In this document: piece by piece, positions 15,215 through 29,548 of the stretch
Position numbering within the stretch: the first letter of the stretch is position 1
Layout of the letters: the number at the start of each line of letters is the position of its first letter
IMG/VR virus record: IMGVR_UViG_3300009130_000011
Span: 1 to 64,000 of that record
DNA length: 64,000 nt
Source: a virus
Reading direction: 5' to 3' (one strand)
The notes under the pieces: generated by a model
The model's database searches: none
What the model saw: only the letters and a program-made list of their open reading frames with translations
What the model was told of the DNA's origin: nothing
Translations under genes and position numbers: made by a program

Positions 15215-15218
15215 TACT

Positions 15219-15527: not shown

Positions 15528-15528
15528 G

Positions 15529-15545
15529 TTGGCACGACATCTGAA
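15529..15545 (+). promoter_or_regulatory. sigma54-like -24/-12 motif
   Basis: TTGGCACGACATCTGAA, 28 bp before element 1. Confidence 0.55.
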
Positions 15546-15556
15546 CGGCCCTTTCA

Positions 15557-15623
15557 TAAGTCGTTGACTATCAGCCGGTTAGCCGGCGCAGGGCGGCGTA
15601 AGTCCTTCATTGCCAATGACTTA
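15557..15623. repeat. 67-bp palindromic element, copy 1
   Basis: TAAGTCGTTGACTATCAGCCGGTTA-GCCGGCGCAGGGCGGCG-TAAGTCCTTCATTGCCAATGACTTA. Confidence 0.9.
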
Positions 15624-15695
15624 CAACATACAAAAAAACGAAAAAAAAATAACTTTTTTCTTGCAATTCCACGAAAAATTCTTTAAGTTTATAGT

Positions 15696-15893
15696 ATGTT
15701 AAACAAGAAAATACAAGTAAGAATCCAAGAGTGGTCAACTCATTGGGCAGTTAAAATCTTTGACACAGGAACGGACTACCCTCGTGTTCGGACTGCGTCA
15801 AGCCTTTCCCACCTTCGCACCATAAAGCAAGAGGAAAAGCTTAACTCTCCACGCTTTCAAGTTGTAATGCAACGCAGGCATTTTAATGCTTGA
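15696..15893 (+). CDS. hypothetical early protein
   Basis: 65 aa, leaderless promoter at 15661. Confidence 0.7.
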   Translation: MLNKKIQVRIQEWSTHWAVKIFDTGTDYPRVRTASSLSHLRTIKQEEKLNSPRFQVVMQRRHFNA

Positions 15894-15924
15894 CTTTTAT
15901 AAAAAAATCCTTTAGTTTATACTT

Positions 15925-16179
15925 ATGAATTACTCAAACAGAAATGTCCCAACTCGGAGAGTCGAGTTTCAGAATGTAACGATGGAGCTTACCAAAAGAT
16001 TCCAAGATGACCCTAGCGTGGTCAAGACCCAACGCTTGCGGTTTTCTGCTGACCTAGACCAAGAGCTAGACAATGCCTTCCTAAAGTCTCACGCAGAGAG
16101 TGTTTTCAAGTTTTGGGACATCCTAGATGTCGAGCTTGTCCACTCCTTCGTTGACTCAACCGATCAATACATATACTAA
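15925..16179 (+). CDS. hypothetical early protein
   Basis: 84 aa, leaderless promoter at 15890. Confidence 0.7.
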   Translation: MNYSNRNVPTRRVEFQNVTMELTKRFQDDPSVVKTQRLRFSADLDQELDNAFLKSHAESVFKFWDILDVELVHSFVDSTDQYIY

Positions 16180-16180
16180 G

Positions 16181-16357
16181 ATGATAACAATAAAACAAAA
16201 CCCTAACTTCACCAAGTTCTTCCAAGTCTTTGCCTTTGGGCAGTACATCGACGAGGTCGAGCGTCGCAGTAAAGCCTTGCGTATAGCTACCAAGCTCGCC
16301 AAGCAACACAAGCAAGACTTTATAAATGTTGACGGCTTGATGCAAGAAGTGTCCTAA
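16181..16357 (+). CDS. hypothetical early protein, paralog of 21163..21348
   Basis: MITIKQNPNFTKFFQVFAFGQYIDEV; its stop TAA is the first 3 nt of element 2. Confidence 0.75.
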   Translation: MITIKQNPNFTKFFQVFAFGQYIDEVERRSKALRIATKLAKQHKQDFINVDGLMQEVS

Positions 16358-16421
16358 GTCGTTGATAATCAGGGCCTTAGGCCGCCCTGCGCCGGCTAAC
16401 CGGCTGATAATCAAGGACTTA
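16355..16421. repeat. 67-bp palindromic element, copy 2
   Basis: TAAGTCGTTGATAATCAGGGCCTTA-GGCCGCCCTGCGCCGGC-TAACCGGCTGATAATCAAGGACTTA. Confidence 0.9.
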
Positions 16422-16432
16422 CGAAACCGGCG

Positions 16433-16449
16433 TTCACATAGCGTGCCAA
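16433..16449 (-). promoter_or_regulatory. sigma54-like -24/-12 motif
   Basis: reverse complement TTGGCACGCTATGTGAA, 28 bp from element 2. Confidence 0.55.
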
Positions 16450-16566
16450 CTTAATAGCTTGCGGCAAGTATAAGCCCGGGTGTAATAAGCTATAAGCTAA
16501 GCTAAAAAGAAGCTAATAGTAAAAAAAAATCTTGTAAATATGCGTTTTATGTGCTACCTTATAGGT

Positions 16567-16758
16567 ATGAATGATAAAGATAAGAAAGTAAACGGCTTCA
16601 TCGCCAAAGTTAACATCGTCGACCGCAAGTCGGGCGACATCATCGCACGGAATCAAATCCTCAAGTGTGAGCATCACACCACCATTGATGCCTTGAATCG
16701 TGACCTCGCCAAGTTTGGCTTGCCACGCAAGTTTGAGTTTGTCGATTGGATTGCATAA
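16567..16758 (+). CDS. hypothetical early protein
   Basis: start MNDKD set by the promoter at 16532. Confidence 0.7.
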   Translation: MNDKDKKVNGFIAKVNIVDRKSGDIIARNQILKCEHHTTIDALNRDLAKFGLPRKFEFVDWIA

Positions 16759-16800
16759 AAAAAGCTTGCAATAAAACTTTAAATCCTTAGTCTTATACAT

Positions 16801-17034
16801 ATGAATATAATTGAACAAACCCGCAAAGAATGCAACCGCGAGCTTGACCTCGGTCTTGCTCTTTCCAAAGCTGAGGGAAATCTGAATTTCCTCGCAGGAC
16901 AATCCCACGAGAATAAGCTCGGACTAAATGCCATAACTCAAGACATGGCAATCCTTGACGCCCTTAATGCGGTACAAATCGCCCGCAAAGCTTTTCAAGA
17001 AATACTTTCAGAAAAGCGAAAAAAAAGCTTGTAA
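16801..17034 (+). CDS. hypothetical early protein
   Basis: 77 aa, promoter at 16766. Confidence 0.7.
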   Translation: MNIIEQTRKECNRELDLGLALSKAEGNLNFLAGQSHENKLGLNAITQDMAILDALNAVQIARKAFQEILSEKRKKSL

Positions 17035-17063
17035 TAAACTAAAAAATCCTTACTCTTATACTT

Positions 17064-17264
17064 ATGGAAAATACTGATTCACTCGACCGCACCGCCCACG
17101 CCTTCGGCATGACCGATCTCGAATTTGAGGAACGCTCTCAAGTCGAGGCTGAGATTGCCGCCCAACAAGTCATCCGTAGATGGCAAGAAGAGGAGCAGAT
17201 CCTCAGAGAGTCCTTTGAAGCTCTCAGCCTCTTTGACGAAGAGGAAAACCCCCATCTCTTCTGA
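17064..17264 (+). CDS. acidic early protein; N-terminus shared with 19849..20073
   Basis: DSLDRTAHAFGMTDLEF. Confidence 0.7.
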   Translation: MENTDSLDRTAHAFGMTDLEFEERSQVEAEIAAQQVIRRWQEEEQILRESFEALSLFDEEENPHLF

Positions 17265-17268
17265 CGGG

Positions 17269-17285
17269 TTGGCACGCTTCTTGAA
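17269..17285 (+). promoter_or_regulatory. sigma54-like -24/-12 motif
   Basis: TTGGCACGCTTCTTGAA, 28 bp before element 3. Confidence 0.6.
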
Positions 17286-17296
17286 CGGCCCTTTTA

Positions 17297-17363
17297 TAAG
17301 TCGTTCATAATCAAGGGCTTAGGCCGCCCTGAGCGAGCTAAGTAGCTGATAGCCAAGGACTTA
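17297..17363. repeat. 67-bp palindromic element, copy 3
   Basis: TAAGTCGTTCATAATCAAGGGCTTA-GGCCGCCCTGAGCGAGC-TAAGTAGCTGATAGCCAAGGACTTA. Confidence 0.9.
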
Positions 17364-17424
17364 CGACGCAAAAAAAGTTAAAAAAGTTCTTGACTTTTCG
17401 GGGTTGCTGTGCTATGTTATAGGT

Positions 17425-17483
17425 ATGATTAAGAAAATCCCAAACTAAGAGCCGTAGAATGGCGGGACGTGGCTCCCCGCAGA
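17425..17483 (+). ncRNA. micro-ORF (MIKKIPN*) plus pseudoknot unit, copy A
   Basis: own sigma70 promoter at 17390; GAGCC/GGCTC and GCGGG/CCCGC interleaved helices. Confidence 0.6.
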
Positions 17484-17544
17484 TCACCAAAAAAAACTTA
17501 AAATAATCCTTGACTTTTAGCCCAAACTCCGTTAACTTATAAGT

Positions 17545-17663
17545 ATGAAAATGAAAATCCCCAACTAAGCGCCGTATAAGTCGGGACGTGGCGCCCCGAA
17601 GATTATGAAAATGAAAACCCCCAACTAAGAGCCGTAGAACGGCGGGACGTGGCTCCCCGCAGA
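17545..17663 (+). ncRNA. micro-ORF plus pseudoknot units, copies B (MKMKIPN*) and C (MKMKTPN*), tandem with a 60-nt period
   Basis: promoter at 17510; copy B shows compensatory changes GCGCC/GGCGC and TCGGG/CCCGA. Confidence 0.6.
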
Positions 17664-17669
17664 GTTTGG

Positions 17670-17736
17670 TAACCCTCTTATAATCAAGGACTTACGCCGC
17701 CCCTGTCCGCGTAAGCGGTTGAATACCAAAGACTTA
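17670..17736. repeat. 67-bp palindromic element, copy 4
   Basis: TAACCCTCTTATAATCAAGGACTTA-CGCCGCCCCTGTCCGCG-TAAGCGGTTGAATACCAAAGACTTA. Confidence 0.88.
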
Positions 17737-17747
17737 TGAAACATAAG

Positions 17748-17764
17748 TACAGAAATCATGCCAA
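17748..17764 (-). promoter_or_regulatory. sigma54-like -24/-12 motif
   Basis: reverse complement TTGGCATGATTTCTGTA, 28 bp from element 4. Confidence 0.5.
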
Positions 17765-17842
17765 TTCATGCGATAGGATAGTGCAAAAAATTAGTTGAAA
17801 GTTTTTCTTGACTTTTGGCGTTTTTTGGGTTATGTTGTAGAC

Positions 17843-17938
17843 ATGAAATTAACTGAAAGAGAAAAAATCCTCCTCGCAATCGTCCTTCCTAAAAAGGAAA
17901 AAAAAGCAAAAAAAAGTTTGCAATTCCGCCAAAACTAG
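17843..17938 (+). CDS. 31-aa leaderless small protein (MKLTEREKILLAIVLPKK...)
   Basis: TTGACT at 17808, ATG 35 nt later; below the ORF-track cutoff. Confidence 0.5.
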   Translation: MKLTEREKILLAIVLPKKEKKAKKSLQFRQN

Positions 17939-17984
17939 TTTAGCTTATATACATACAACAAAGATAACCTAACTCAAAAAAATT

Positions 17985-18173
17985 ATGACCAAGTCCGAAA
18001 TGCTCAAAGAAATCTCCATCCTCCACGAAACGCTGAAAGATTGCGTTCTCACCATCGCTGACCGCGTTGCGATCCGCAACGAGATCGGTGACCTGCAGGA
18101 CAGGGTCGCCCTCCTCGACTTCCAAAACGAAGGCGAGGACTTCGACTTCGGTCATCACTCCGAATGGGAGTAA
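17985..18173 (+). CDS. hypothetical early protein
   Basis: 62 aa, promoter at 17918. Confidence 0.7.
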   Translation: MTKSEMLKEISILHETLKDCVLTIADRVAIRNEIGDLQDRVALLDFQNEGEDFDFGHHSEWE

Positions 18174-18223
18174 AAAGCAAAAAAAAGTTTGCAATCACCT
18201 AAAAAATCGTTTAAATTATACTC

Positions 18224-18445
18224 ATGAATAAAGCAGAATTAAATCAAAAATTCGAGCTTCTCAATCGAGAAGTAAATGCCCTTTGGGATTCTTCAAAGTC
18301 TTTGCAAGATCAATCTGCCGAGTACAGCCAAGCTTGGCAAGCTCGTTTCGAGGTTTCTCGTGAACTTCGCAACTTTCGGGAGCTTGGCGGTTCTCGCTCT
18401 CGTTGCCATGATATGGCTTTTAAGATCCGCGAGCAAAACGCTTAA
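18224..18445 (+). CDS. hypothetical early protein
   Basis: 73 aa, promoter at 18189. Confidence 0.7.
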   Translation: MNKAELNQKFELLNREVNALWDSSKSLQDQSAEYSQAWQARFEVSRELRNFRELGGSRSRCHDMAFKIREQNA

Positions 18446-18471
18446 AGTCTAACCTCAACAGAAAGGAAAAT

Positions 18472-18624
18472 ATGTTCATCCTCAAATCTATTCTCAACCA
18501 AGCGGGCGCCGTTTGGAAAGTTGAAAGCATCGCAATGCGCGAGCGTGACGCAAGGCGTCTCCTCCGTAGGCGTCAAGCACAAAATGACGGCAGTCGCCGT
18601 TACGGGCTTTTCCCTGCCAAGTAA
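18472..18624 (+). CDS. 50-aa small protein (MFILKSILNQAGAVWKVES...)
   Basis: GAAAGGA SD; below the ORF-track cutoff. Confidence 0.6.
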   Translation: MFILKSILNQAGAVWKVESIAMRERDARRLLRRRQAQNDGSRRYGLFPAK

Positions 18625-18641
18625 TTGGCACGCTTCTTGAA
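18625..18641 (+). promoter_or_regulatory. sigma54-like -24/-12 motif
   Basis: TTGGCACGCTTCTTGAA, 28 bp before element 5. Confidence 0.6.
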
Positions 18642-18652
18642 CGGCTGTTTCA

Positions 18653-18719
18653 TAAGTCGTTGACTGTCAGGCGGTTAGGCCGACAGGGGCGGCGTAAGTC
18701 ATTGATAGTGTGACACTTA
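18653..18719. repeat. 67-bp palindromic element, copy 5
   Basis: TAAGTCGTTGACTGTCAGGCGGTTA-GGCCGACAGGGGCGGCG-TAAGTCATTGATAGTGTGACACTTA. Confidence 0.88.
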
Positions 18720-18798
18720 CGACACGCAAGAGAATAGTGTAAGAAAATAGTTGAAAGTTTTTCTTGACTTTTCGCATTTTTTGGCTTATGTTATAGGC

Positions 18799-18906
18799 AT
18801 GAAAGTTAAAGTGAGAAAGACAATCCTTATGCCCAAAAGCATTCCGCACAAGCGGAAAAACAAAGTCTTGCCACGCAAGGCAAAGCACAAGGGAATTGTG
18901 CAATAA
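18799..18906 (+). CDS. 35-aa basic peptide with an ArfA-like RKxKH motif
   Basis: MKVKVRKTILMPKSIPHKRKNKVLPRKAKHKGIVQ; promoter at 18764; paralog at 25918..26037. Confidence 0.6.
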   Translation: MKVKVRKTILMPKSIPHKRKNKVLPRKAKHKGIVQ

Positions 18907-18959
18907 AATAGTTGAACATTTTTCTTGCAATTTTACAAAAAATCCTTTATATTCTTAAT

Positions 18960-19103
18960 ATGAAAACAAAAGAACAACTTCTTAAAGACCTTGCCTTTTG
19001 GCAGGATAAGGTCAATCGTTCACGCAAGGAGTCTCTCCGCTCCATCAGAGTTCTGCACCTTCAGCATGTGCAGGATGAACTCAAGAAACTTCAAGAAAGT
19101 TAA
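18960..19103 (+). CDS. hypothetical early protein
   Basis: start MKTKEQ set by the promoter at 18925. Confidence 0.65.
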   Translation: MKTKEQLLKDLAFWQDKVNRSRKESLRSIRVLHLQHVQDELKKLQES

Positions 19104-19149
19104 GTTTCGGGGTTGACTTTATCGCTACAAACTGACAAAATATAATCTT

Positions 19150-19341
19150 ATGAAAATCACTAACGGAAAACTATACTTCTCAAAATCTAACGCTTGTGTT
19201 GTCCGAGTCTTGCGGGCAGACCAAACCCAAAAGGTTGCAACGCTGAAGCATCACGCTTCTGATATGGTGGAATCCGAGGTCTTGTTTAAGGACTTGACTC
19301 CCGCCACTTCCGAGCAAGTAAAATCCTACTTGGGCAAATAA
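19150..19341 (+). CDS. hypothetical early protein
   Basis: 63 aa, promoter at 19114. Confidence 0.7.
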   Translation: MKITNGKLYFSKSNACVVRVLRADQTQKVATLKHHASDMVESEVLFKDLTPATSEQVKSYLGK

Positions 19342-19410
19342 GATGATTGAAATGATTCTTATAATCGCCTTCGCTCTAGTAATCCCAACGCTTGCAAAAG
19401 CGAACGCACA

Positions 19411-19671
19411 ATGAGCGAAGCAGAAGTTGCACGATACAACGAAACACTTGCAGATCTCTCTCAAAGCATTGATCTGGGTTGGAAAAAGTTTTGGCAAGAG
19501 CGAGGAATAAACGCGGCTCTTGCTTGTAAGGATATAAATACGGGCGGACCTTGGTACTCCCGAGGCTATGGCGAGCAGGACGCCACAGGCGTTTTCGCCC
19601 ACATGCTAGAACCCGCCGAGCTTATCACCCGAGCAGTCACCCGCAAGAAAACCTTAAAGCAGTTTCATTAA
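19411..19671 (+). CDS. hypothetical early protein
   Basis: 86 aa; stop overlaps element 6. Confidence 0.65.
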   Translation: MSEAEVARYNETLADLSQSIDLGWKKFWQERGINAALACKDINTGGPWYSRGYGEQDATGVFAHMLEPAELITRAVTRKKTLKQFH

Positions 19672-19734
19672 TCCTTGATAATCAAGGGTTTACGCCGCCC
19701 TGAGCGACATAAGTCGTTGAACACCAAGACCTTA
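19668..19734. repeat. 67-bp palindromic element, copy 6
   Basis: TTAATCCTTGATAATCAAGGGTTTA-CGCCGCCCTGAGCGACA-TAAGTCGTTGAACACCAAGACCTTA. Confidence 0.88.
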
Positions 19735-19848
19735 CGGAAACATAGTTAAAATCAAAATTCTGCCCGGGGTAGTTATTTGGTATTGTATTTGTTAAAATTT
19801 GTTTAAAAATCTCTTGACTTTTCCCCGTTTCCCCCTTATGTTGTTCTT

Positions 19849-20073
19849 ATGATTAACGAAAACGATTCCCTCGCCCGCACCGCCCACGCCTTCGGCATGA
19901 CTGATGTCGAATTTACCGCCCGCCACGGGTTCGCCCCCGTGGACGATCTCCCGCTCCCGCCTCCTCCTGCGGGCTTCACGGTCTCGCCCAGCGGAGCCAT
20001 CCGCGAGGCTAGCCCCGAGGAACTCAGCGACTGGGTCGCTGAGGATATCCTCAACGGAGAGTTTGACGACTAG
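19849..20073 (+). CDS. acidic early protein; N-terminus shared with 17064..17264
   Basis: DSLARTAHAFGMTDVEF; promoter at 19814. Confidence 0.7.
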   Translation: MINENDSLARTAHAFGMTDVEFTARHGFAPVDDLPLPPPPAGFTVSPSGAIREASPEELSDWVAEDILNGEFDD

Positions 20074-20077
20074 GCCC

Positions 20078-20144
20078 TAAGTCGTTGACAATCAAAGGGT
20101 TAGCCCGCCCTGAGCGGCGTAAGTAGCTAATGATCAACGACTTA
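20078..20144. repeat. 67-bp palindromic element, copy 7
   Basis: TAAGTCGTTGACAATCAAAGGGTTA-GCCCGCCCTGAGCGGCG-TAAGTAGCTAATGATCAACGACTTA. Confidence 0.9.
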
Positions 20145-20201
20145 CAAAAAGTATTGTTCTGTCGCCCGCCCGCCCGCAAAATTGTTATTTAGCTATTTGC
20201 G

Positions 20202-20243
20202 AAAAACCCCCCATCCGCCTTTCCGAAGGGCGAATGAGGGGCT
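20202..20243 (-). terminator. hairpin terminator where the + and - early blocks converge
   Basis: CCCCCCATCCGCCTTTCCGAAGGGCGAATGAGGGG stem with a T-tract on the minus strand. Confidence 0.6.
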
Positions 20244-20355
20244 TCAATAACTAATAACCTAACCAATAATAACTAACCACTAAAAATTTTCATTGCAATG
20301 CCACATAAAAGCGAAAGCTAAAGCCCACGGCAAGAAAATAAAAAGATCTGCCCAC

Positions 20356-20607
20356 TCACCCATTGCCCAAGATTCCTTCAACAACGGGTTTTGCCACAAG
20401 GTTTCTGATGGCAACACCATCTCCGTACTGACTACCCCTAACGGCAGACTTGAACTTGCGAGTGCTATACTCATAAAAAGCATTGACCACTACGCCCGCC
20501 TTGTTGACATAAGAGAAACAAAGCTTGTCCCCTTGCTTGTTTACATTTTGCGGTTGGTACTTTGCCACCGCATTAGCTTTTTCTATGAATGAGAATTCTG
20601 ATTGCAT
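20356..20607 (-). CDS. hypothetical early protein
   Basis: 83 aa, AGGAGG SD. Confidence 0.7.
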   Translation of the reverse strand: MQSEFSFIEKANAVAKYQPQNVNKQGDKLCFSYVNKAGVVVNAFYEYSTRKFKSAVRGSQYGDGVAIRNLVAKPVVEGILGNG

Positions 20608-20621
20608 AATATGTTTCCTCC

Positions 20622-20909
20622 TTAGTTGTTGTTGTTGTAAACTTCACGCATCTCGGAGCTTACTCCGAAAGATTCGTCTTCCTCGTCAATGTCTTCAGCA
20701 GAGTCGCTGAACAAAAACTGAGACTCGTCCTCCAAGTCTTCTTTTTGACTATCGAGCAAACCATGCTCGACAACCAATTCTTCGGTCTTCACATCCTCGA
20801 CAAACTCTTGGGCTTGATCGCTAAGTGCGACTCCCTTGGCTTGCTCGAAAGCTTGACGGATGATCTCGATGCGTTCTTCTTGAGTGAGTTGTTCTTGTGT
20901 TAATTCCAT
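20622..20909 (-). CDS. highly acidic early protein
   Basis: 95 aa D/E-rich; TTGACT-17-TATATT promoter, leaderless. Confidence 0.7.
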   Translation of the reverse strand: MELTQEQLTQEERIEIIRQAFEQAKGVALSDQAQEFVEDVKTEELVVEHGLLDSQKEDLEDESQFLFSDSAEDIDEEDESFGVSSEMREVYNNNN

Positions 20910-20924
20910 AGTGTTTAATATAGT

Positions 20925-21122
20925 TTAGTTTGAGAATAAAGTCAAGCTTTCGTTTTCTAATTGTATGCGAATATATGGCTCAGAATATTCGTCTGTGTCC
21001 ATGTCTGCATAATTACAATCAACAAAATCGGAAACTTCGTTTACTCCGTTGTTGTTTTCTGATTCATTAACTACGAATGAGCAAATGTCATTTCCAAAGT
21101 AATCTTCAATTTTTATCTTCAT
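20925..21122 (-). CDS. hypothetical early protein
   Basis: 65 aa, leaderless promoter. Confidence 0.65.
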   Translation of the reverse strand: MKIKIEDYFGNDICSFVVNESENNNGVNEVSDFVDCNYADMDTDEYSEPYIRIQLENESLTLFSN

Positions 21123-21162
21123 GTGTTTAATATAGTTTAGTTGTGATCAGTAGTCAAGCCCA

Positions 21163-21348
21163 TTAGGCATTTTCTTGAACTTTTTTTACTTCGCCAAAAG
21201 CGTGAATGTGGGCGACTCCGTTTTGTTTTGCAATGGTCTTTGCTAGACGCAATGCCTTTGCGTTACTTTGCACCTCGTCAATTAAATTACCGAAGGCGAA
21301 GACTTGAATCCACTTGGGAAAGTTAGCGTTTTTCTTAATAGTTATCAT
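21163..21348 (-). CDS. hypothetical early protein, paralog of 16181..16357
   Basis: MITIKKNANFPKWIQVFAFGNLIDEV. Confidence 0.75.
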   Translation of the reverse strand: MITIKKNANFPKWIQVFAFGNLIDEVQSNAKALRLAKTIAKQNGVAHIHAFGEVKKVQENA

Positions 21349-21452
21349 ACATAAGATACTAAGGACTTTTGAGTAAACCACAACAAAAAAAAATGTAAAA
21401 TAATCACTTTATCCGCCCGCTTATATCCTTCATAAGTTTCTCTAATAATACG

Positions 21453-21519
21453 TAAGTCTTTGTCTTTCAATGACTTGCGCCGCCCAGAGCGCCCTAAGTG
21501 CCTGAGTATCAATGACTTA
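21453..21519. repeat. 67-bp palindromic element, copy 8
   Basis: TAAGTCTTTGTCTTTCAATGACTTG-CGCCGCCCAGAGCGCCC-TAAGTGCCTGAGTATCAATGACTTA. Confidence 0.9.
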
Positions 21520-21681
21520 GTAGCCTAACCAAACCAAAACCTCTTGTGCTTCATACTCTTCCCTGTCTCCCAAGTCATCAAAGAATTGCTCGATATCTTC
21601 GCAATGATGCCTTGCCAATTCAAGCAAAGCTCTTTCTCTCGTTATAGTTAAACCTTCGGCTGAATCGTAATAGTCCATCAT
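21517..21681 (-). CDS. 54-aa protein (MMDYYDSAEGLTITRERA...WLGY)
   Basis: overlaps the stop of the GP88-like gene; its own stop lies in the last 3 nt of element 8. Confidence 0.65.
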   Translation of the reverse strand: MMDYYDSAEGLTITRERALLELARHHCEDIEQFFDDLGDREEYEAQEVLVWLGY

Positions 21682-22394
21682 GAATTTATACCTTCTTTAA
21701 CGAATCCTGTCAAATCTTTTTTGGCAAGACCTTTTTCGATAAGCCCGACGACCACGCCTTGCTTGTCAAGAAATCGCAAGTCCGATTCGTCGCCATTGAT
21801 AACCTCGACACCATTCCAAGTTTCAGGTAATTGGTTACGAAAGACAACGGCAACATTACCGCCCATTTCCAAAACTAGCTTGGCGATCTTTTCATTCGTT
21901 TCGGAGCATGAAAAAGTCAAGTGGTAGTTGCTTGGCAACTCGCCATTGAGAAAGCGTTGCATCCTCTTAAATGACTTGGTATAATCATAAAATTGAGTCT
22001 TGCCGTGCTTTTCAAAGAGGGTTACCCCATCTTCGTTTATAATGTTTTCCCATGCAATATCGCTTGTAAGGTTAGGACGGAAAACCGCTTGCAAACCTTT
22101 CTTGCTTGCCGACTTAATAGTTGAAGTAATTTCCTTTGATAGCTTGGCAAGGAAATCGAACCTTTGCTCGAAAAAGAGCTTAGTCTTTGCAATTCGTGAA
22201 TCTTGAACAGAATTCATTTGCCCACGACCTGCCGTATTCAAACAAGCCATGGTGCAACCTTTGGAACGCCATTGGCAAACTTCATAACCCGACAAATTAG
22301 CGGGAGCTAAGTGGATGCCTTTAGTTAAATATCCGAACGCCTCGCCTTTTGTGATCTTGGCGTTCCCTGCGGTGAGTAGAGTTGTTTTAATCAT
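21678..22394 (-). CDS. GP88-like phage protein
   Basis: C..RSKGC...CL, RPNLTSDIAWE, QFYDYTK, NYHLTFS, GDESDLRFLD. Confidence 0.7.
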   Translation of the reverse strand: MIKTTLLTAGNAKITKGEAFGYLTKGIHLAPANLSGYEVCQWRSKGCTMACLNTAGRGQMNSVQDSRIAKTKLFFEQRFDFLAKLSKEITSTIKSASKKGLQAVFRPNLTSDIAWENIINEDGVTLFEKHGKTQFYDYTKSFKRMQRFLNGELPSNYHLTFSCSETNEKIAKLVLEMGGNVAVVFRNQLPETWNGVEVINGDESDLRFLDKQGVVVGLIEKGLAKKDLTGFVKEGINS

Positions 22395-22421
22395 AATAGA
22401 ATACTAATTGAATTAGTTTGA

Positions 22422-22622
22422 CTATGCAAGCCTAAAAATAAAATCTTCAAAGTAATCGGGTTCAAGCCCGAACTCACTCATAAAGGTATGCTCCCATTCG
22501 GAAAGGTCGCCGCCGGCTTCCCAATCAGCTTTCATTTCGTTGAAGAATTGGATAACTTGCTTGACCGCCTCGGCTTGCGTTAAGCCGTCGCGGGACATTA
22601 GGACTTTTACTGTTTCTTTCAT
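22422..22622 (-). CDS. hypothetical early protein
   Basis: VLMSRDGLT...FGLEPDY; start MKETVK set by promoter spacing. Confidence 0.7.
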   Translation of the reverse strand: MKETVKVLMSRDGLTQAEAVKQVIQFFNEMKADWEAGGDLSEWEHTFMSEFGLEPDYFEDFIFRLA

Positions 22623-22687
22623 TCCTATATACTGACAGATTCTCAGTAAAACACAAGAAAAAAATTGCAACTAAGTGAAAATAGTTG

Positions 22688-22754
22688 TAAGTCCTTGAAT
22701 ACCAACGCTTTCCGGCGCCCAGAGCGACGCAAGTCGCTGATTGTCAACGACTTA
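22688..22754. repeat. 67-bp palindromic element, copy 9
   Basis: TAAGTCCTTGAATACCAACGCTTTC-CGGCGCCCAGAGCGACG-CAAGTCGCTGATTGTCAACGACTTA. Confidence 0.88.
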
Positions 22755-22982
22755 GTCGTCTTCTCTTAGCTCATCGAAATACTCTTCGAGCCTTGGGAGG
22801 TCAAGACTGCTGTCGTTGTAAGCTACCCTGTCGGGAGTCTCGGTATAGCCCACCTCTCGCATTTGCTCAACAAAGTTTGCGTAAGTTCCGCACTCTTTGG
22901 CGAAACTATACATTCCCTCGTCGTTGCCGATCCAAAGAGCGATATTCCAAGTTTCTCTGTTTTTCCATCCGTTGTAGCTCAT
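22752..22982 (-). CDS. hypothetical phage protein (YNGWKNRETWNIALW)
   Basis: 76 aa; stop lies in element 9. Confidence 0.75.
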   Translation of the reverse strand: MSYNGWKNRETWNIALWIGNDEGMYSFAKECGTYANFVEQMREVGYTETPDRVAYNDSSLDLPRLEEYFDELREDD

Positions 22983-23272
22983 GAGTTTGCCTTTCCAATT
23001 GTGTAGGGTGAATGTTGGGTGAACTTGTCGATGTGAGATTCAAGCTGTCTTATGATCCAAACTGCACGCTCGATGGAGCAAGGATCAAAGCCTTCCATGG
23101 GTTGTCCGTTTTTTAATATAATATACATATCTTATAGGTTCTCCGTGTTATGTCCTGCTCTCCTCATTGAGTGCAAGGCTTCTTGCTTTGTCATGTTGAA
23201 TCGGGACATGAGATACATGAGCAAGTCATGCCCTGTGAGTTGTTGGTTTCGATCTGTCATGGTAGTATTCTC

Positions 23273-23710
23273 TCAGTATTGGTCTAAGTTGTCAAGACCT
23301 AATTCTTTGTTATGTTGTTGTCTTGCGTCAGTAAGAAGGCAGACCCAAGCGAAGTCGTTAAGATGTGCTTGATGCATTAGCTTAGTGATCTGCGTGGGAG
23401 TTTGCCACGCAAGAACATCATCACCAATAGACAAGGGAAGCATGGTGTCTCTACCATCATACCACATTGCGACCTCGTAAGTGTTGTCTGAATGGTCGCC
23501 ATACAATCCAGTACCATCTGCAATGTTTTGCACGGCTGAGATGGTGAATTGATTCCTTGAACCAAAATCAAGCATGGCTTGAATAGCTTTGCCATCGGCA
23601 AATCCCGCGTGAGACTTGAAAACTAAATCATCAAACCCCTTGAGGTTGCTCCTTGGGGCAGAGGCTTGATAATCTGAAATGTAGTTTGGTATATCGTAGT
23701 TAATAATCAT
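23273..23710 (-). CDS. hypothetical protein
   Basis: 145 aa, leaderless promoter. Confidence 0.7.
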   Translation of the reverse strand: MIINYDIPNYISDYQASAPRSNLKGFDDLVFKSHAGFADGKAIQAMLDFGSRNQFTISAVQNIADGTGLYGDHSDNTYEVAMWYDGRDTMLPLSIGDDVLAWQTPTQITKLMHQAHLNDFAWVCLLTDARQQHNKELGLDNLDQY

Positions 23711-23787
23711 AAATAGATACTAAGCCCGTTTTGTCTTAATTGCAAGAAAAAAGATGCTAAATCGCAAAAAAGGTTTGCTTAATGCTG

Positions 23788-23854
23788 TAAGTCATTGTCT
23801 GGCAAGGACTTGTGCCGCTCAGGGCGGCATAAACCCTTGAGTCGCAAAGGCTTA
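23788..23854. repeat. 67-bp palindromic element, copy 10
   Basis: TAAGTCATTGTCTGGCAAGGACTTG-TGCCGCTCAGGGCGGCA-TAAACCCTTGAGTCGCAAAGGCTTA. Confidence 0.9.
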
Positions 23855-23859
23855 TGAAA

Positions 23860-24066
23860 TTAGAACTTCAATGCCTTTAGGCTCGTGTTGTTCTTTAGCC
23901 ACCTGCGAAGCGGGTGAAATGCTTTGGCAGACATATGAGCCAAGTATTGCTCTCCGTTCTTTGCCATGATCATATACCCATTTGCAGTTGCCCGAATCTC
24001 CTGAATATCGGGGCATTTCTTTATTTGCTTTAGAACTTTGCGATTACCGCTCTCTGAATGTTTCAT
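23860..24066 (-). CDS. small basic protein
   Basis: 68 aa, TTGACA promoter. Confidence 0.65.
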   Translation of the reverse strand: MKHSESGNRKVLKQIKKCPDIQEIRATANGYMIMAKNGEQYLAHMSAKAFHPLRRWLKNNTSLKALKF

Positions 24067-24374
24067 GATATAAATCTAAACAATTTTTTATTGATTGTCA
24101 ACCACTAAGCCCAAGAAAATGAACTATTGCGATGGCAATCATGATGATTAAGAATGCTAGTGAGAATGTTTGTTGTTGCGTCATAATAAAGTGAATTGAG
24201 AGCCACGGAGCCGCCCGTGGTAAATGCTACCCCGTCTTACCGAGGATGTGACACTAGGTGCCTATAAGGCTTGGTACTGCACTCTCAAAATTGTGAACCT
24301 TTTTCTCTCTCCCGAAGGTTGTAGGCGTGTGCTGACGCCTCGTTGTTCAATGCTTTCGCATCTACAGAAAAAGC

Positions 24375-24491
24375 AGCCCTCTGTGAGATTCGAACTCACC
24401 TCTTTGACTCTAAAACGATGATCGGTCGCTCGCAGGCTTAACTAGTATACTGCCGAGAGCCATTGTTTTCACCAATGTAAACTAAGAGGGC
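24375..24491 (-). ncRNA. tRNA-like RNA with a 44-nt insertion in the anticodon loop
   Basis: acceptor GCCCTCT/AGAGGGC, D-arm GTTT..TGG..AAAC, stem TGGCTCT/AGAGTCA, T-arm GTGAG-TTCGAAT-CTCAC; sigma70 promoter upstream. Confidence 0.7.
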
Positions 24492-24574
24492 ACAAATGAA
24501 ATTGATTATCAAAAGAACTAAATACAATTGTGACAGAATACCGAGCGAAGTCAATACTTTTTTTCTTTTTGTCA

Positions 24575-24641
24575 TAAGTGTCTGTTAATCAATGGTTTGC
24601 GCCGCTCAGAGCGCCATAAGCCCTTGACCATCAATGACTTA
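24575..24641. repeat. 67-bp palindromic element, copy 11
   Basis: TAAGTGTCTGTTAATCAATGGTTTG-CGCCGCTCAGAGCGCCA-TAAGCCCTTGACCATCAATGACTTA. Confidence 0.88.
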
Positions 24642-24660
24642 CAGAAAGTAAATGCCCAAT

Positions 24661-24689
24661 AAAAAAGCCCCCTCGGGGTGAGGGGGCTT
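24661..24689 (-). terminator. Rho-independent terminator after the DUF932-like gene
   Basis: AAAAAAGCCCCCTC-GGGGT-GAGGGGGCTT. Confidence 0.85.
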
Positions 24690-24714
24690 ATTTGCCTATT
24701 TGGCGACTGACCCT

Positions 24715-25644
24715 TTAGAAGGGGTAGTCATCCTCTGCATCATATAGATCGGCAGGAACTTCGCCATCTATGTTTCCTGCTACCTCAAGAACTTGAGGGG
24801 CAGGGGCATGAGCAACTTCGACAAGTTCAGCTTCCTCGACTTGAGAATCGAAAGCTGAAAGATCGAAACCGACCTCAGAGTCAAGAACAGAGTGCAATGC
24901 CTCAGAGCGTTGAGGCAAGGCAACAAGATTGCCCTTGTATACCTCGGTAAAGGCATTATAAAGGGAGTTCATGTTTCTGTCCCAAAACTCGGTGTGGTCA
25001 GACTTTTCCCATTGGTCAACCACATCAGCAATCTTAGTCTTGCTGACTGCACCTGCTTTGTAGGCACGAATCACAAGATCGTTGACTTGAGCGTTGGTCA
25101 AATCAAAATCCTTGTAGGATACGATGCGTTGATCTTGACCCATCCAAAAATTGAACAACTTGCCCAAAGTGCGAGAGATCACATGATCTAGCTCGGAAAG
25201 GATGTTCTTAGTGTGCCTGCGAGCCAACTTGACCGAATTGGTAAAGATGAGGTTGTCGCAAACAAATGGAGCGTCACCTGCACACAATCCTGCAGGGAAG
25301 CACTTGTCGTGAGCATTACGCAATCCAACGATTGTGCCTCTCTCGGTGTTTTCCCTGTTTGGGTGAGTGACCTCAAACAATCCAAAGTAGCGTTTGCCAC
25401 CTCTTGCGAGGTTGTGGCACTCGTCTACAACTTCAAACCCACCTTGCTCAAGATGGTTACGAGTCTTGTCAATCAAGAGATTGTGCGAAATAGGCTGATA
25501 AGAAACGGAGTGCGTTCCGTCCTTGTTCGCCTCTTTGCGATACTCGATATCGGGAGTCACTACATCAGCGACTTCCCCTAGCGTTACTACCTTATGCTCG
25601 CCTCCGCAGATGGCGAGATTAATTTTGTTTTTCGTGTTAGACAT
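24715..25644 (-). CDS. DUF932-family protein
   Basis: YQPISH, GKRYFGL, GLRNAHDK, FVCDNL, RRHT, SLYNAFTE. Confidence 0.7.
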   Translation of the reverse strand: MSNTKNKINLAICGGEHKVVTLGEVADVVTPDIEYRKEANKDGTHSVSYQPISHNLLIDKTRNHLEQGGFEVVDECHNLARGGKRYFGLFEVTHPNRENTERGTIVGLRNAHDKCFPAGLCAGDAPFVCDNLIFTNSVKLARRHTKNILSELDHVISRTLGKLFNFWMGQDQRIVSYKDFDLTNAQVNDLVIRAYKAGAVSKTKIADVVDQWEKSDHTEFWDRNMNSLYNAFTEVYKGNLVALPQRSEALHSVLDSEVGFDLSAFDSQVEEAELVEVAHAPAPQVLEVAGNIDGEVPADLYDAEDDYPF

Positions 25645-25682
25645 GATTATATTCTCTCAGTTTTTTTGTTAATTGTCAAGGG

Positions 25683-25928
25683 TTAATTTCTGTAAAAGTC
25701 TTGTGTGGTATCTTCTGACATCAACTTTTCGTAAAGTGATGCTTGTTCCGAAACGATCTTGAAGCTTATGCCGATAAGGCTAATCATTGCTAAGTCTTCC
25801 TCGTTGAGCTTGCCCATTTCATTCATGGGGTTGATGAGCTTCTCGAATATGAAATCCATACCCGAAGACATTACCTCTTCTGCTTGGGGGCATTCAAATT
25901 CGTTTGTGAAATCTTCATTAATATTCAT
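25683..25928 (-). CDS. hypothetical protein
   Basis: 81 aa. Confidence 0.6.
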   Translation of the reverse strand: MNINEDFTNEFECPQAEEVMSSGMDFIFEKLINPMNEMGKLNEEDLAMISLIGISFKIVSEQASLYEKLMSEDTTQDFYRN

Positions 25929-26037
25929 AGCGTTTTTTATGTTTGAGTTTTCTGTCTAAGGTTTTGTTCTTCATCTTGAAGGGGCGAGCCTTAGTGAAAA
26001 GGATCGGCTTTCTAATCTTAATTTCCCTTGCTTTCAT
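25918..26037 (-). CDS. 39-aa basic peptide with an ArfA-like motif, paralog of 18799..18906
   Basis: MKAREIKIRKPILFTKARPFKMKNKTLDRKLKHKKRYEY; leaderless promoter. Confidence 0.6.
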   Translation of the reverse strand: MKAREIKIRKPILFTKARPFKMKNKTLDRKLKHKKRYEY

Positions 26038-26142
26038 AATATATATTCTGACAGATTTTGAGTAAACCGCAAGAAAAAAAAAGTTTTTAAGTGAAGTTTT
26101 TTTTGTCGCTTATAGCTAGAATAAGCTGAGCTTATGATTCCG

Positions 26143-26209
26143 TAAGTCGTTGGGTCGCAAGGACTTACGCCGCCCAGAGCGCCCTAACTCGTTGGTATGG
26201 AGCGACTTA
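26143..26209. repeat. 67-bp palindromic element, copy 12
   Basis: TAAGTCGTTGGGTCGCAAGGACTTA-CGCCGCCCAGAGCGCCC-TAACTCGTTGGTATGGAGCGACTTA. Confidence 0.9.
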
Positions 26210-26539
26210 TGCCATCGCGTTGTGCATAGATTCGTAGAAACCTTTGTCTGCCGTCCCATCGTCTTTGCGAACTTGAAGCTCCTCCGTTTCAGCAGGGAAG
26301 ACATGGCAAGGTTCGTCAGCACCATTTTGCTTAATGTACCAAGCGGGTGGATCGAAAGGTTGAACAAGCATTCCAATGAAGCCATACTCCACAAAATACT
26401 TCAAAACTTTTGATCGACCAATGCCATTGATCTTTACATTAACTTCTGATCCTACAGCAGGTATGGGTTGATCTGATCCCCATGCTAGTTTCTCAAACTC
26501 GGTGTAGGAGTTTACGGGTTGTTCGATTTTTTCGTGCAT
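26207..26539 (-). CDS. hypothetical protein
   Basis: 110 aa; stop lies in element 12. Confidence 0.7.
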   Translation of the reverse strand: MHEKIEQPVNSYTEFEKLAWGSDQPIPAVGSEVNVKINGIGRSKVLKYFVEYGFIGMLVQPFDPPAWYIKQNGADEPCHVFPAETEELQVRKDDGTADKGFYESMHNAMA

Positions 26540-26570
26540 AATAGTATTCTCTCAGTTTTTGTTGTGATTG

Positions 26571-26792
26571 TCAATTACAAAATGGATCGGGTTTCCCAAG
26601 AGTATAATCCCATGAGATAGTTGGGTCGCAGTCTAGCATCTCTAATACTTTCTGCCAAGTTTCAGCTACCTGCGTAGTAAATTCACTCTCTCCCATTTCG
26701 GGGTAGACATGACTTATGTCGTTTGGATCGTAGACATTAAGGACATCAAAGATTACCTCAAGGTCGGCTCGGTTTAGGCTAACTTTATCCAT
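26571..26792 (-). CDS. hypothetical protein
   Basis: start MDKV chosen from the overlap with the upstream gene. Confidence 0.55.
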   Translation of the reverse strand: MDKVSLNRADLEVIFDVLNVYDPNDISHVYPEMGESEFTTQVAETWQKVLEMLDCDPTISWDYTLGKPDPFCN

Positions 26793-26967
26793 TTTGCTTT
26801 GCTTCTTCATTTTTAACTTTGCTAAGTTGGTCAATAGTCTTCGCAAGAAATATAAGTTCTTCCCTTGCAGTCCTCTTCCCCTCAAATGAGGCGTTTTCGT
26901 TTTCGAGAACCGCAATGTAAATCTTTACTGCGGATTCCCAAGTCGGAGTCATATCAATCGTTTTCAT
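26785..26967 (-). CDS. hypothetical protein (IDMTPTW)
   Basis: 60 aa, leaderless promoter. Confidence 0.65.
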   Translation of the reverse strand: MKTIDMTPTWESAVKIYIAVLENENASFEGKRTAREELIFLAKTIDQLSKVKNEEAKQNG

Positions 26968-27007
26968 AGTATAAATCTTAAAAAATTTTCGTTAAGTTGT
27001 CAAGCGT

Positions 27008-27427
27008 TTACCACCAAGAAGAGTAAAATACTTTCTTGCCTTGTGCTATGGCTTTGTACGCATCAGATATAAACTGCAAGTCAGTTTCCTTGTAATAGTA
27101 ATCACCATCTTCGTAGGGCGTTCCATCCTCCTTCTCCCAAGAGTAAGAATCACTACCAAAGAAGAAACCGCCTGTTTCGGGCATATGCTTTTGATTGATA
27201 ACTGCCTCAAGTTGCTCAAGGTCAGTAAGCGTTAGCTCGACAGGAACACAATTAAATTCTCCCATGCCCCCGCTATCTAAATCATCTAAATTACCTTCGT
27301 ATGGTCTGCCCTTGTCCTCCCAAAGTTGCTCCATGTATCCTTGGAGGCGGTTGTGCTTTCTCCAATCAACGAGATGCTCGGTTTCTCCGTTCTTGTCTTT
27401 TGCGTATGCGTATTGATCTAGTCCCAT
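27008..27427 (-). CDS. hypothetical phage protein (MGLDQY...WRKHN...GFFFG...YSSWW)
   Basis: 139 aa, AGGAG SD. Confidence 0.75.
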   Translation of the reverse strand: MGLDQYAYAKDKNGETEHLVDWRKHNRLQGYMEQLWEDKGRPYEGNLDDLDSGGMGEFNCVPVELTLTDLEQLEAVINQKHMPETGGFFFGSDSYSWEKEDGTPYEDGDYYYKETDLQFISDAYKAIAQGKKVFYSSWW

Positions 27428-27523
27428 GATTTTCTCCTTATGTTTAAGTTAATTTGTATATATGAGTATGACAGGTCATAAGTAAAACGCAAGAAAAAAA
27501 ATCAAATAAAGTTAAAATAGTCA

Positions 27524-27590
27524 TAACCCGTTAGCTATCAAGCACTTACGCCGCTCAGGGCGACGCAAGCCGCTGATAGTCAACGACTTG
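27524..27590. repeat. 67-bp palindromic element, copy 13
   Basis: TAACCCGTTAGCTATCAAGCACTTA-CGCCGCTCAGGGCGACG-CAAGCCGCTGATAGTCAACGACTTG. Confidence 0.88.
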
Positions 27591-27641
27591 CGAAGTTTCT
27601 CATTAACCCTACAACACGAACATACTCAAAGGCTTATTTGG

Positions 27642-27875
27642 TTAGGCTCTATTTAGTGATACGATTCTATCATATCGAAAAGAGCGAATGCCATTCTTGT
27701 TATGGCAGTATGCCCTGAAGCCCGCAGTAACAAGCTTCTCACTTACATTGCCAAACTCATTGACATGCAAAGGCTTCTCAATGGTGTACATTTCGGTGCG
27801 TCCATCCTTAGTGGTATAGACCAAGCTATACAATGGGTTGAACATTCTTTTAATTTTATTAATTATCTTCTTCAT
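27642..27875 (-). CDS. small WYL/Sm-like fold protein (putative)
   Basis: FRAYCHNKNGIRSFRYDRI resembles the WYL-domain RxFRxDRI motif. Confidence 0.45.
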   Translation of the reverse strand: MKKIINKIKRMFNPLYSLVYTTKDGRTEMYTIEKPLHVNEFGNVSEKLVTAGFRAYCHNKNGIRSFRYDRIVSLNRA

Positions 27876-29291
27876 TTGTATTATCCTCCGTTATTGGGTT
27901 TGCGTTATAAAAATTGTAAACATCACACGCTTCTTGAGAGTTATCACATGTCACGCCTATGACATCCCTTGGCTCTTCAATGGGACTCCAAGGTGTCTCC
28001 GACTCTTCAAAATATACTGCCCACAATTCTGCGTCTTCATCATATTCGGGAAGACCAAGAGGTTTGCCGACACATACTGCTTCTACATGTTTATTCATAA
28101 ATCCCACTCTCCCGCTTTTACATTGTCAATATCTTGCATCGCCTTATCATAGGCGGTGCTTTCGCTAGTGTCTTGAATCTCGTCATCGTATAGTTCAAGT
28201 ATATCATTTGCATACTGAATGTTAAAATTTTCTTCTTTAACTAATCGTTCTAGTTCTGTTTTTAATTGTTTTCTCATAGTGCTAGTCTCGTAAGTTTTGG
28301 TTCGTAGTTATGAAGGGTTACTCCGAAGTGAGATGCAAGCTCGGCAATCAAATCGTTGTAGTGCCAAGTGTCGTAGGCATGATTAAGCAAGGCTTCTTGT
28401 TCGTCTGCGGTGTGACCATCTCTAAGTTCGTCATAAATCTCGAATATGTTCATGTTGCCATCCCACATATTCACTTGCCATTCGATGTCTGCTTTATCCA
28501 TTTTTAACCTCCTTGATAATTTTTTCCATTTGTTCTAAGACGGACTTCTTGTTACCTTTTAATCCGTACTCGGCTTTTACGATTGAATATGCTGATTGAC
28601 CTCTTCTGCTCATTCCAAGGCACTCCAACTTGAGAGCGGATCTGAGACTGAGGAATCGAAACATATCGATTTGTTCGGGTGTGTCTAATGTAATCATGGT
28701 TAAAATACTATTGAATTAATGCGTCTGTGTCAACACTTTTCTCATTGTTTTTCTTTAATTCCCAACTAATATCATAGAGGTACTGACTGATGAAGTCGAG
28801 CGATCCCGCTATGTTTTTTAATTGAAACAAAGTTTCATCGTTGTTCTTTCTCATCTCGTAGAGTTCGTCTGCAATTCCATTGATTGCTACGACATCTTCG
28901 GATAGTTCGTGTCCTCTTTTAAGGATCTGCTTTGCTTTTTCCATAGTCTTATTCATTTGACATTTCCTCCTCGTCTAGTACTTTTTGTTTTAGCTCCTCT
29001 AGCAATTCAAAGGTTGAGTACCAAGGATCTGTCTTGTCTACCTCACCCTCCATTTCACTATATAAAATATAATCTTTAACTTCCTCAATACATTGGGAAA
29101 CAGGAATCTTAATCCTAAGCATTCTCATTTTGCTCCTCCTCTTCTCTGACTTTCATTAATAGCACGGCAAGCGTGGCAAATGTTTCTCCCCAAGGACTAT
29201 CGTCATTAGTCGCTCCAAGGCGTTGTAGTTTCATCATCACTTGTTCAACGGCAAGTGAGAGATGGTATTCGTTGTCTTGTTCAATCTTCAT
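27859..29291 (-). other. run of small overlapping hypothetical genes (27859..28107, 28095..28277, 28274..28501, 28494..28697, 28708..28956, 29115..29291)
   Basis: co-oriented, tightly packed ORFs with internal TTGAC promoters. Confidence 0.65.
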
Positions 29292-29346
29292 ACCTATTAG
29301 TTTGACAGATTCTTGGGTTAAGTCAACACCTTTTTTCAAATAAACG

Positions 29347-29413
29347 TAACTTACTGAATACCAACAACTTGCGCCGCCCAGAGCGCCGTAACCCCTTGAC
29401 CTTCAGTGACTTA
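29347..29413. repeat. 67-bp palindromic element, copy 14
   Basis: TAACTTACTGAATACCAACAACTTG-CGCCGCCCAGAGCGCCG-TAACCCCTTGACCTTCAGTGACTTA. Confidence 0.85.
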
Positions 29414-29548
29414 GGCCAAAAAGCTACGCGCTTGATTATAGTATTGCAAATTTTAATTCATAAGATTATTTGTTCTAATATACATTGCTATTCCAATTGC
29501 TATAGATATTAAGATTATTTCCATATATTTGGTTTGTTGTTTAGATTG

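Follow-up and report, generated by a model that had tools for sequence, protein, structure and literature searches.

A repeated 67-bp element with IHF-like half-sites at gene ends in the early region of an uncultured marine phage

Introduction

Why does a virus repeat one elaborate palindrome fourteen times among its early genes? The question is raised by the first 64 kb of a 102,754-bp phage genome (IMG/VR record IMGVR_UViG_3300009130_000011, here G000) that is 76% complete and belongs to an uncultured marine phage; we call these 64,000 nucleotides the window. The repeated element is 67 bp long and consists of a 25-bp arm, a 17-nt GC-rich palindromic core and a second 25-bp arm. A first-pass annotation of the window had described the copies and had favored phased protein-binding sites on DNA over a folded RNA. 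We report that the element is a real feature under selection: its anatomy, its position, purifying selection on the positions of its half-sites and the absence of a pairing constraint are established. We propose, with a probability of about one half, that the arms are high-affinity sites for a host bending protein of the integration host factor (IHF) type and that the element is a boundary module. The identity of the binder and a function in termination or insulation are what we infer from sequence.

Results

Anatomy of the element

A repeat finder recovered 14 copies with exactly the starts and the 25-17-25 layout first described, all of them free of indels. A profile made from these copies was searched against the whole genome and matched only the same 14 (next best E = 0.68), in agreement with the earlier statement that the window has no copy elsewhere. 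The core pattern had 9 matches in the sequence versus 0 in 100 shuffles. The copies also spread apart as described, with start-to-start distances of 373–1015 bp among the first copies that rise to 1823 bp.

Each arm is built of two inverted half-sites, (W)ATCAA-NNNN-TTA, that share a central base. The consensus sequence for IHF is WATCAANNNNTTR (PMC9452768, PMC10380432), and the invariant positions of the arm (T1, A3, T9, C16, A17, T23, T24 and their mirrors) are the CAA and TT positions of this consensus. Compared with WATCAANNNNTTR, 57 of 100 half-sites had at most one mismatch (15 exact, 42 with one mismatch). By sequence, the half-sites thus match WATCAANNNNTTR and keep its CAA and TT, as expected of an IHF site.

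We examined selection on these positions with a relative, G001, a syntenic viral contig of 104,956 bp that is about 80–92% identical to the phage of the window. This relative has 11 elements, all of them positional orthologues of window copies. Copies 3 (17297..17363), 4 (17670..17736) and 5 (18653..18719) are absent from G001 and fall in insertions specific to the window’s phage. Orthologous copies were 89.8% identical between the two genomes, and their 75 substitutions spared T1, A3, T9, C16, A17, T23, T24, the core center and the mirror positions.

Position relative to genes, promoters and terminators

The + strand carries the genes between 14.9 and 20.1 kb, and the − strand those between 20.2 and ~31 kb. 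Followed in the direction of transcription, a gene end in either block leads into an element, then an A/T-rich stretch, then a promoter and the next gene; this promoter starts 26–110 bp after most copies. The first-pass annotation had placed the elements between a gene end and the next promoter, and ORF (open reading frame) ends, promoter positions and the junction bias reported below confirmed this placement. Copy 1 (15557..15623) has its core in inverted orientation. The first TAA of copy 2 (16355..16421) is the stop of ORF 16127–16357, and copy 6 (19668..19734) overlaps the stop of ORF 19411–19671. Copy 7 (20078..20144) is located at the convergent junction of the + and − gene blocks, and its left arm is strongly unlike that of its orthologue. 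The genes at copy 8 (21453..21519) are on the − strand, and the next − strand promoter begins ~31 nt beyond copy 9 (22688..22754). Copies 10 (23788..23854), 12 (26143..26209), 13 (27524..27590) and 14 (29347..29413) were, like copy 1, identified by both the repeat finder and the profile. The overlap of upstream stop codons with element ends, noted earlier for copies 2, 6, 8, 9 and 12, was reproduced with ORF ends at 16357, 19671, 21517, 22752 and 26207.

A terminator scan flagged a canonical GC hairpin with a T run on the − strand (24665..24689), transcriptionally just upstream of copy 11 (24575..24641); this copy lies 24 bp downstream of the terminator, which in turn follows the DUF932 gene. 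A second hairpin-plus-T-run terminator on the − strand, near 20195–20250, was read by eye. Because canonical terminators of this kind exist in the same genome, the elements are not the phage’s ordinary terminators. Within the cores of the window only 3–6 bp pair, and next to the core come the arm (4 T in 9 nt) and then A-rich DNA. The window’s cores therefore lack the U tract that directly follows the GC hairpin, on the sense strand, in an intrinsic terminator.

Several other features of the region were recorded. The early and middle promoters at 14890–19860 (+) and 20900–31200 (−) have a fixed arrangement of −35 box, 17 nt, −10 box, 6 nt and ATG, and this fixed promoter-to-ATG geometry implies leaderless mRNAs. 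Promoters of a second class, in which a conserved TCTGTCA immediately precedes the −10 box, are used in the − strand block, and the phage encodes an IF-1 homologue. Between copies 3 and 4, at 17424–17663, a unit is repeated three times in tandem, each time with a micro-ORF of seven codons (MIKKIPN, MKMKIPN, MKMKTPN) ahead of a GC-rich hairpin. Two of the units have a promoter of their own, and the close relative lacks all three. Just past the last element, at 30440–30652 (−), lies a full-length manA RNA motif (Rfam RF01745, 85.9 bits).

The element in related phages

The element is not confined to this phage: it is found clade-wide in related phages. Searches with the arm pattern gave matches in at least 119 viral-contig stretches and at least 120 stretches of bacterial genomes or metagenome-assembled genomes (MAGs). 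The fetched loci contained 1108 arms (917 unique) and 559 two-arm elements. Early genes common to the window and the viral loci include DUF932 (48 loci), L5 gp82-like (43), GP88 (39), PhoH and others; the arm-bearing viral loci are one broad clade of uncultured phages. When megablast and blastn were run against cultured phages, only short matches to Stenotrophomonas phage DLP6 were obtained. The terminase is 24–27% identical at most to anything cultured, and the phage is not T4-like.

Across the family the 25-bp arms are conserved, and the core (76% G+C) is lineage-specific in sequence and length. Core sequences are homogeneous inside a genome and different between lineages, and core lengths range over 11–37 nt with modes at 17, 25 and 33 nt. 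The claim that spacing is constant while sequence drifts thus holds inside this genome and its close relative but fails family-wide. A textbook intrinsic terminator (GC stem, tetraloop and T run) makes up the core in the subfamily with 33-nt cores, and in 32 of 38 cases it points the same way as the upstream gene. Selection for a hairpin was also tried as a general explanation of the core; folding energies were only slightly below those of shuffles (−7.6 versus −6.7 kcal/mol, with 55% of cores below the shuffled mean), which was not decisive.

The position of the element is kept even where the proteins of relatives are just 60–78% identical. In 37 of 46 loci it lies downstream of DUF932, and in 19 of 22 it follows a Kyano_Gp96-like gene. 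Elements are biased to gene 3′ ends: the ratio of convergent to divergent junctions was 88:47 for elements, versus 185:207 for all intergenic regions.

Half-sites in phage DLP6 and in bacterial chromosomes

Phage DLP6 (KU682439.2) carries 14 pairs of direct repeats of the half-site ATCAACGACTTA, 25 bp apart and strand-biased (29 forward, 5 reverse). Because the half-site occurs alone in DLP6, it works as a unit by itself. Downstream of each pair lie a GC hairpin and a TTTACT-N16/17-TATAAT promoter, for example at 45311–45420, 48054–48170 and 74440–74550. These repeats were published as PHIRE-predicted ‘phage promoters’ in groups of two (PMC5349666), a label that came from repeat finding alone. 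The actual promoter appears to be the TTTACT-N16/17-TATAAT sequence after the hairpin, which is of the T4 early type and is overlapped by the tail of the stem-loop.

In three Planctomycetes genomes the arm palindrome stands between a TGT-N10-ACA palindrome and a GG-N10-GC sigma54 promoter, ending 28–30 nt before the −24 box. A spot upstream of a sigma54 promoter is the classical location of IHF. At the Planctomycetes loci L166:3001–3200, L210:6679–6880 and L220 ~2560–2760 we observed two arm-like palindromes around TGT-N10-ACA, then a promoter, a small ORF and a Ser/Thr kinase gene. An Akkermansia MAG (G005) contained 36 relaxed arm palindromes, versus 0 for the control. Ten of 19 examined Akkermansia palindromes were 9–19 nt from a −24/−12-like box, and one of these boxes was perfect, TTGGCACG-N4-TTGCA. 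Among the Akkermansia palindromes (G005 loci L292–L311; other Akkermansia loci L157, L186, L254 and L256), 8 of 19 examined have a second palindrome, TGCATT-N5-ATGCT(GTA), at a distance of exactly 9 nt and just upstream of gene starts; the two make up a putative composite regulatory motif. A motif common to all PVC (Planctomycetes–Verrucomicrobia–Chlamydiae) hosts was rejected, the strict arm being present in only 5 of the 121 Verrucomicrobiota genomes searched. In Kiloniella (L180:566, L211:7537, L255:936) and in a Prevotella MAG (L162:139), the palindrome is extended by 3–6 complementary bases, is followed by a T run and sits directly behind a tRNA-like 3′ end, as read by eye; here it could be a terminator or the remnant of an integrated element.

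The phage also carries a DUF1501 and PSCyt2/PSD1 (DUF1549/DUF1553) gene pair at G000 86449–89759 (−). The DUF1501 and PSCyt2/PSD1 families are expanded in PVC bacteria, and their presence agrees with a host from the Planctomycetota or Verrucomicrobiota. Five sulfotransferases and several glycosyltransferases are encoded nearby.

Candidate binders

No HU/IHF gene was found in the phage, and a phage-encoded binder of this type was rejected on that ground. PVC genomes encode an HU/IHF-family protein that scores equally on IHF alpha and IHF beta, and higher on both than on HU; the equal scores would fit a homodimer on a symmetric site. A further candidate was a pair of adjacent paralogous 379-aa proteins (G000 80586–81725 and 81722–82861, − strand), each with two helix-turn-helix domains (HTHs) of the Fis/LuxR/sigma-region-4 type. 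This double-HTH family comprises 116 clusters, mostly from marine metagenomes, and is absent from arm-less relatives. As a general binder it was rejected, because the pair is missing in 16 of 17 arm-bearing contigs, five of them 99–100% complete (1/3 in a separate set).

DNA site or folded RNA

We asked whether the palindromes are conserved as hairpins. Pairing was tested in four helices: one within each arm, one formed by the outer halves and one formed by the inner halves. Among 917 unique arms, Watson-Crick pairs were as frequent as column composition predicts, and in 510 elements none of the four helices exceeded this expectation. Mismatches had been described as mostly uncompensated, and the 25 copies of the two close genomes gave the same result: 72.9% of cells paired in a three-hairpin fold versus 74.4% in shuffles, and 71.0% versus 72.6% in a single long hairpin. 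Because no helix covaries in 25, 510 or 917 sequences, the arms are not selected hairpins. The lack of any pairing excess means, therefore, that the palindromic look reflects four independently conserved half-sites and not selection for pairing.

It has to be considered nonetheless that the element acts as RNA, as a structured 3′ untranslated region with a role in termination, in shielding the upstream mRNA from exonucleases or as an RNase III cleavage site, in the manner of the T7 early sites or of the hairpins of repetitive extragenic palindromic (REP) sequences. The location at gene 3′ ends, where the element is transcribed by position, agrees with this idea, as do the terminator cores of the 33-nt subfamily and the Kiloniella and Prevotella palindromes that form the stem of a T-run hairpin. 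All copies would fold, at −12 to −33.5 kcal/mol, and 22 of 194 single chromosomal arms have flanks that lengthen the palindrome by at least 4 bp. Yet minimum-energy folds differ from copy to copy, and what is conserved is specific bases, not pairs. In DLP6 the half-sites are direct repeats, which are unable to pair with each other. In the sense direction the element has no U tract behind it, and no element matched an Rfam family. We consider a role as RNA quite improbable. The original preference for phased DNA-binding sites over RNA stands in its first part, because the lack of covariation and of a common fold indicates sequence-specific DNA sites; strict phasing does not, because core length varies.

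Cassette variation and recombination

The first-pass annotation had also raised recombination sites, analogous to attC, as a possible role, to be checked by breakpoints in relatives. Measured against the 88%-identical relative, ~2 of 20 synteny breakpoints fell within 25 bp of elements, which is the share expected from coverage. Because breakpoints relative to G001 were not enriched at elements, the recombination-site idea is left without specific support, and a recombination hot spot was rejected. Many breakpoints fall at promoters instead, where most indel ends lie. We did find exchanges at elements: a mosaic breakpoint lies inside copy 7, and contigs from natural relatives lose homology exactly at the element edges 16355 and 22687 or run from the left arm of copy 2 straight into that of copy 5 on the right.

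Could the elements then be mainly recombination linkers or selfish cassettes that shuffle early genes? Besides the exchanges just listed, the uniformity of cores within a genome and their divergence between lineages would suit such an origin, as would the frequent gain and loss of cassettes in the element region. Against it, the orthology of all 11 G001 elements means that no solo gain or loss was seen. There are no target-site duplications, the CG flanks being part of the palindrome; such duplications, together with presence/absence polymorphism, mark miniature inverted-repeat transposable elements (MITEs). Breakpoints at elements were no commoner than coverage predicts, and arms are kept where cores diverge fully, which argues for a sequence-specific function. 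Pfam scans of ~200 ORFs of this 76% complete genome revealed no integrase or transposase. We regard this alternative as very unlikely; recombination at the repeats is real, and we infer that it is a by-product.

Public DNA runs showed that the phage is marine (seawater) and that its cassettes are variable. Among public RNA data, one run contained 6% of the sampled words, as contigs only; one contig ends inside copy 2 and another crosses copies 2 and 3. Because DNA carry-over is possible, these contigs are uninformative on transcript ends.

A sigma54-type motif abutting some elements

Sigma54-type −24/−12 motifs abut the first five copies in alternating orientation. TGGCACG-N4-CTGAA at 15530..15545 (+) ends 11 nt before copy 1 and reads into it, and the motif at 16433..16448 (−) is 11 nt from copy 2 and likewise reads into the element. 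The same motif lies 11 nt before copy 3 (17270..17285, +) and 11 nt before copy 5 (18626..18641, +), and a weaker one, TGGCATG-N4-CTGTA, lies 11 nt from copy 4 (17748..17763, −). In the family, TTGGCAYG-N4-YTGNA at the fixed distance of 11 nt has 34 members by a strict count versus ~0.9 expected, a ~38-fold excess. Altogether the motif occurs on ~50 elements in 25 loci, about 10% of the family. The predicted start of the abutting promoter is the first base of the element, and this phage layout, with a promoter firing into the element, is the opposite of the host layout, with the palindrome upstream of the promoter. The motif may give rise to element-initiated RNAs, or it may hold a parked closed complex that serves as a roadblock.

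These motifs bear on two further explanations. One is that the elements are a phage array run on host sigma54 and IHF through the abutting promoter plus the occupied arms. On activation, sense (copies 1, 3 and 5) or antisense (copies 2 and 4) RNAs would be launched from the elements and would switch early cassettes. A second possibility is a reversible roadblock made of the parked closed complex and the bent DNA. We consider such an array doubtful.

The other is that the arms are operators or enhancers for a dedicated regulator, either a host sigma54 activator with a Fis-type HTH or a phage protein, in an array like that of tandem activator sites or of the stoperators of mycobacteriophage L5. 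The latter are reportedly 13-bp asymmetric, orientation-dependent sites bound by the phage repressor (Brown et al. 1997). The tight link to sigma54-type promoters in both hosts and the phage family is consistent with a dedicated regulator, and so are the patchy distribution of the palindrome among bacteria, the conservation of arm positions beyond the IHF consensus and the early genes of the L5 gp82 and GP88 families in the phage. Many copies of one binding site in short intergenic spaces, thought to stop transcription, are a further likeness to L5. The sites studied here are palindromic and orientation-free, unlike stoperators, and no phage-encoded binder was found. No regulator co-occurs with the arms, the double-HTH pair included, and DLP6 and the window’s phage have no DNA-binding protein in common. 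Dedicated regulation is, in our estimation, possible but rather unlikely.

Discussion

The reading that we prefer is that of an IHF-type site and boundary module. The element would act as punctuation in the DNA where an early or middle transcription unit ends. Its arms would be held by an IHF-type bending protein supplied by the host and not encoded by the phage, and a pair of half-sites sharing a central base would be well matched to an IHF-like homodimer from a PVC host. The core may be a vestigial terminator palindrome: a real intrinsic terminator in sister lineages, it would have decayed here to a hairpin of 3–6 bp without a U tract. Once the arms are occupied, the DNA would be bent sharply in a nucleoprotein complex able to stop or insulate read-through from the strong, densely packed leaderless promoters upstream. 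This complex might do so as a roadblock aided by the hairpin, as a topological barrier to the spread of supercoils, or both, and the bent complex would also shape the DNA ahead of the next promoter. A nucleoprotein scaffold and a host-protein decoy, both suggested at first, may be sub-variants of protein binding.

Several points weigh against the preferred reading. The arms keep more than IHF requires, namely GTC/GAC inside the NNNN block and the flanking CG. The half-sites of one arm overlap, and therefore a heterodimer of the E. coli type fits only one at a time; the pairs in DLP6, 25 bp apart, would likewise crowd two IHF footprints. The strict arm is patchy among the Verrucomicrobiota genomes. 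The distance from the element to the next promoter varies, and most promoters of the + strand block have no element. Lastly, because the hairpin is weak and lacks a U tract, and because a canonical terminator stands beside copy 11, the role of the element itself as a terminator is putative.

The boundary function is suggested by position and by two analogies, with BIME-1/RIB (RIP) elements of E. coli and with the PeSL (promoter early stem-loop) elements of T4-type phages. REP sequences and the bacterial interspersed mosaic elements (BIMEs) that contain them have been credited with termination, mRNA stabilization, topological insulation and IHF binding (PMC3333891). Like the element described here, BIME-1 recurs in intergenic regions where transcription units end, and it combines GC palindromes with an IHF site, which in our case is putative. 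The arrangement is reversed, however, because in BIME-1 two REPs flank one IHF site, whereas here two putative IHF-type arms flank one GC palindrome. No REP-like sequence was found in the element, and Pfam scans found no RAYT (REP-associated tyrosine transposase)/Y1 transposase. A further difference is that our elements belong to a phage genome.

In a PeSL, an early sigma70 promoter comes after a stem-loop or terminator, among small variable genes, and indels between relatives end there (PMC4122927, PMC2839356). Most copies in the window likewise stand ahead of a promoter of this class, where the genes are small and variable. PeSLs, in contrast, have no conserved flanking palindromes or IHF-type sites, and in our case the promoter distance varies, the stem-loop is weak and the phage is not T4-type. 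DLP6 combines both designs, with its half-sites upstream of what appears to be a PeSL-like unit. It resembles the window’s phage in having the half-site next to GC hairpins and before gene clusters, and differs in that its repeats are direct and strand-biased.

The system had been called undescribed. This is correct insofar as there is no Rfam family, and in the literature the arm sequences retrieve only primers and the DLP6 half-site; apart from the DLP6 annotation, the element is undescribed as far as the searchable literature shows. It needs qualification in that close functional analogues, PeSL and BIME-1/RIB, are known, and the logic of the element resembles that of such punctuation elements.

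If the preferred reading is true, a large clade of uncultured marine phages shares a module by which an architectural protein of the host is recruited to punctuate a plastic early region. The module would provide a recognizable signature of transcription-unit boundaries in phage dark matter. For the IHF-like proteins of Planctomycetes and Verrucomicrobia, which have been little studied, the arms would also offer a candidate recognition sequence, with ~36 chromosomal sites in Akkermansia, and they would link IHF, sigma54 and the control of phage early genes. The published annotation of the DLP6 ‘phage promoters’ is corrected as well. Were the array run on sigma54 as well as IHF, it would represent sigma54/IHF-dependent control in a phage of PVC bacteria, of a kind so far undescribed.

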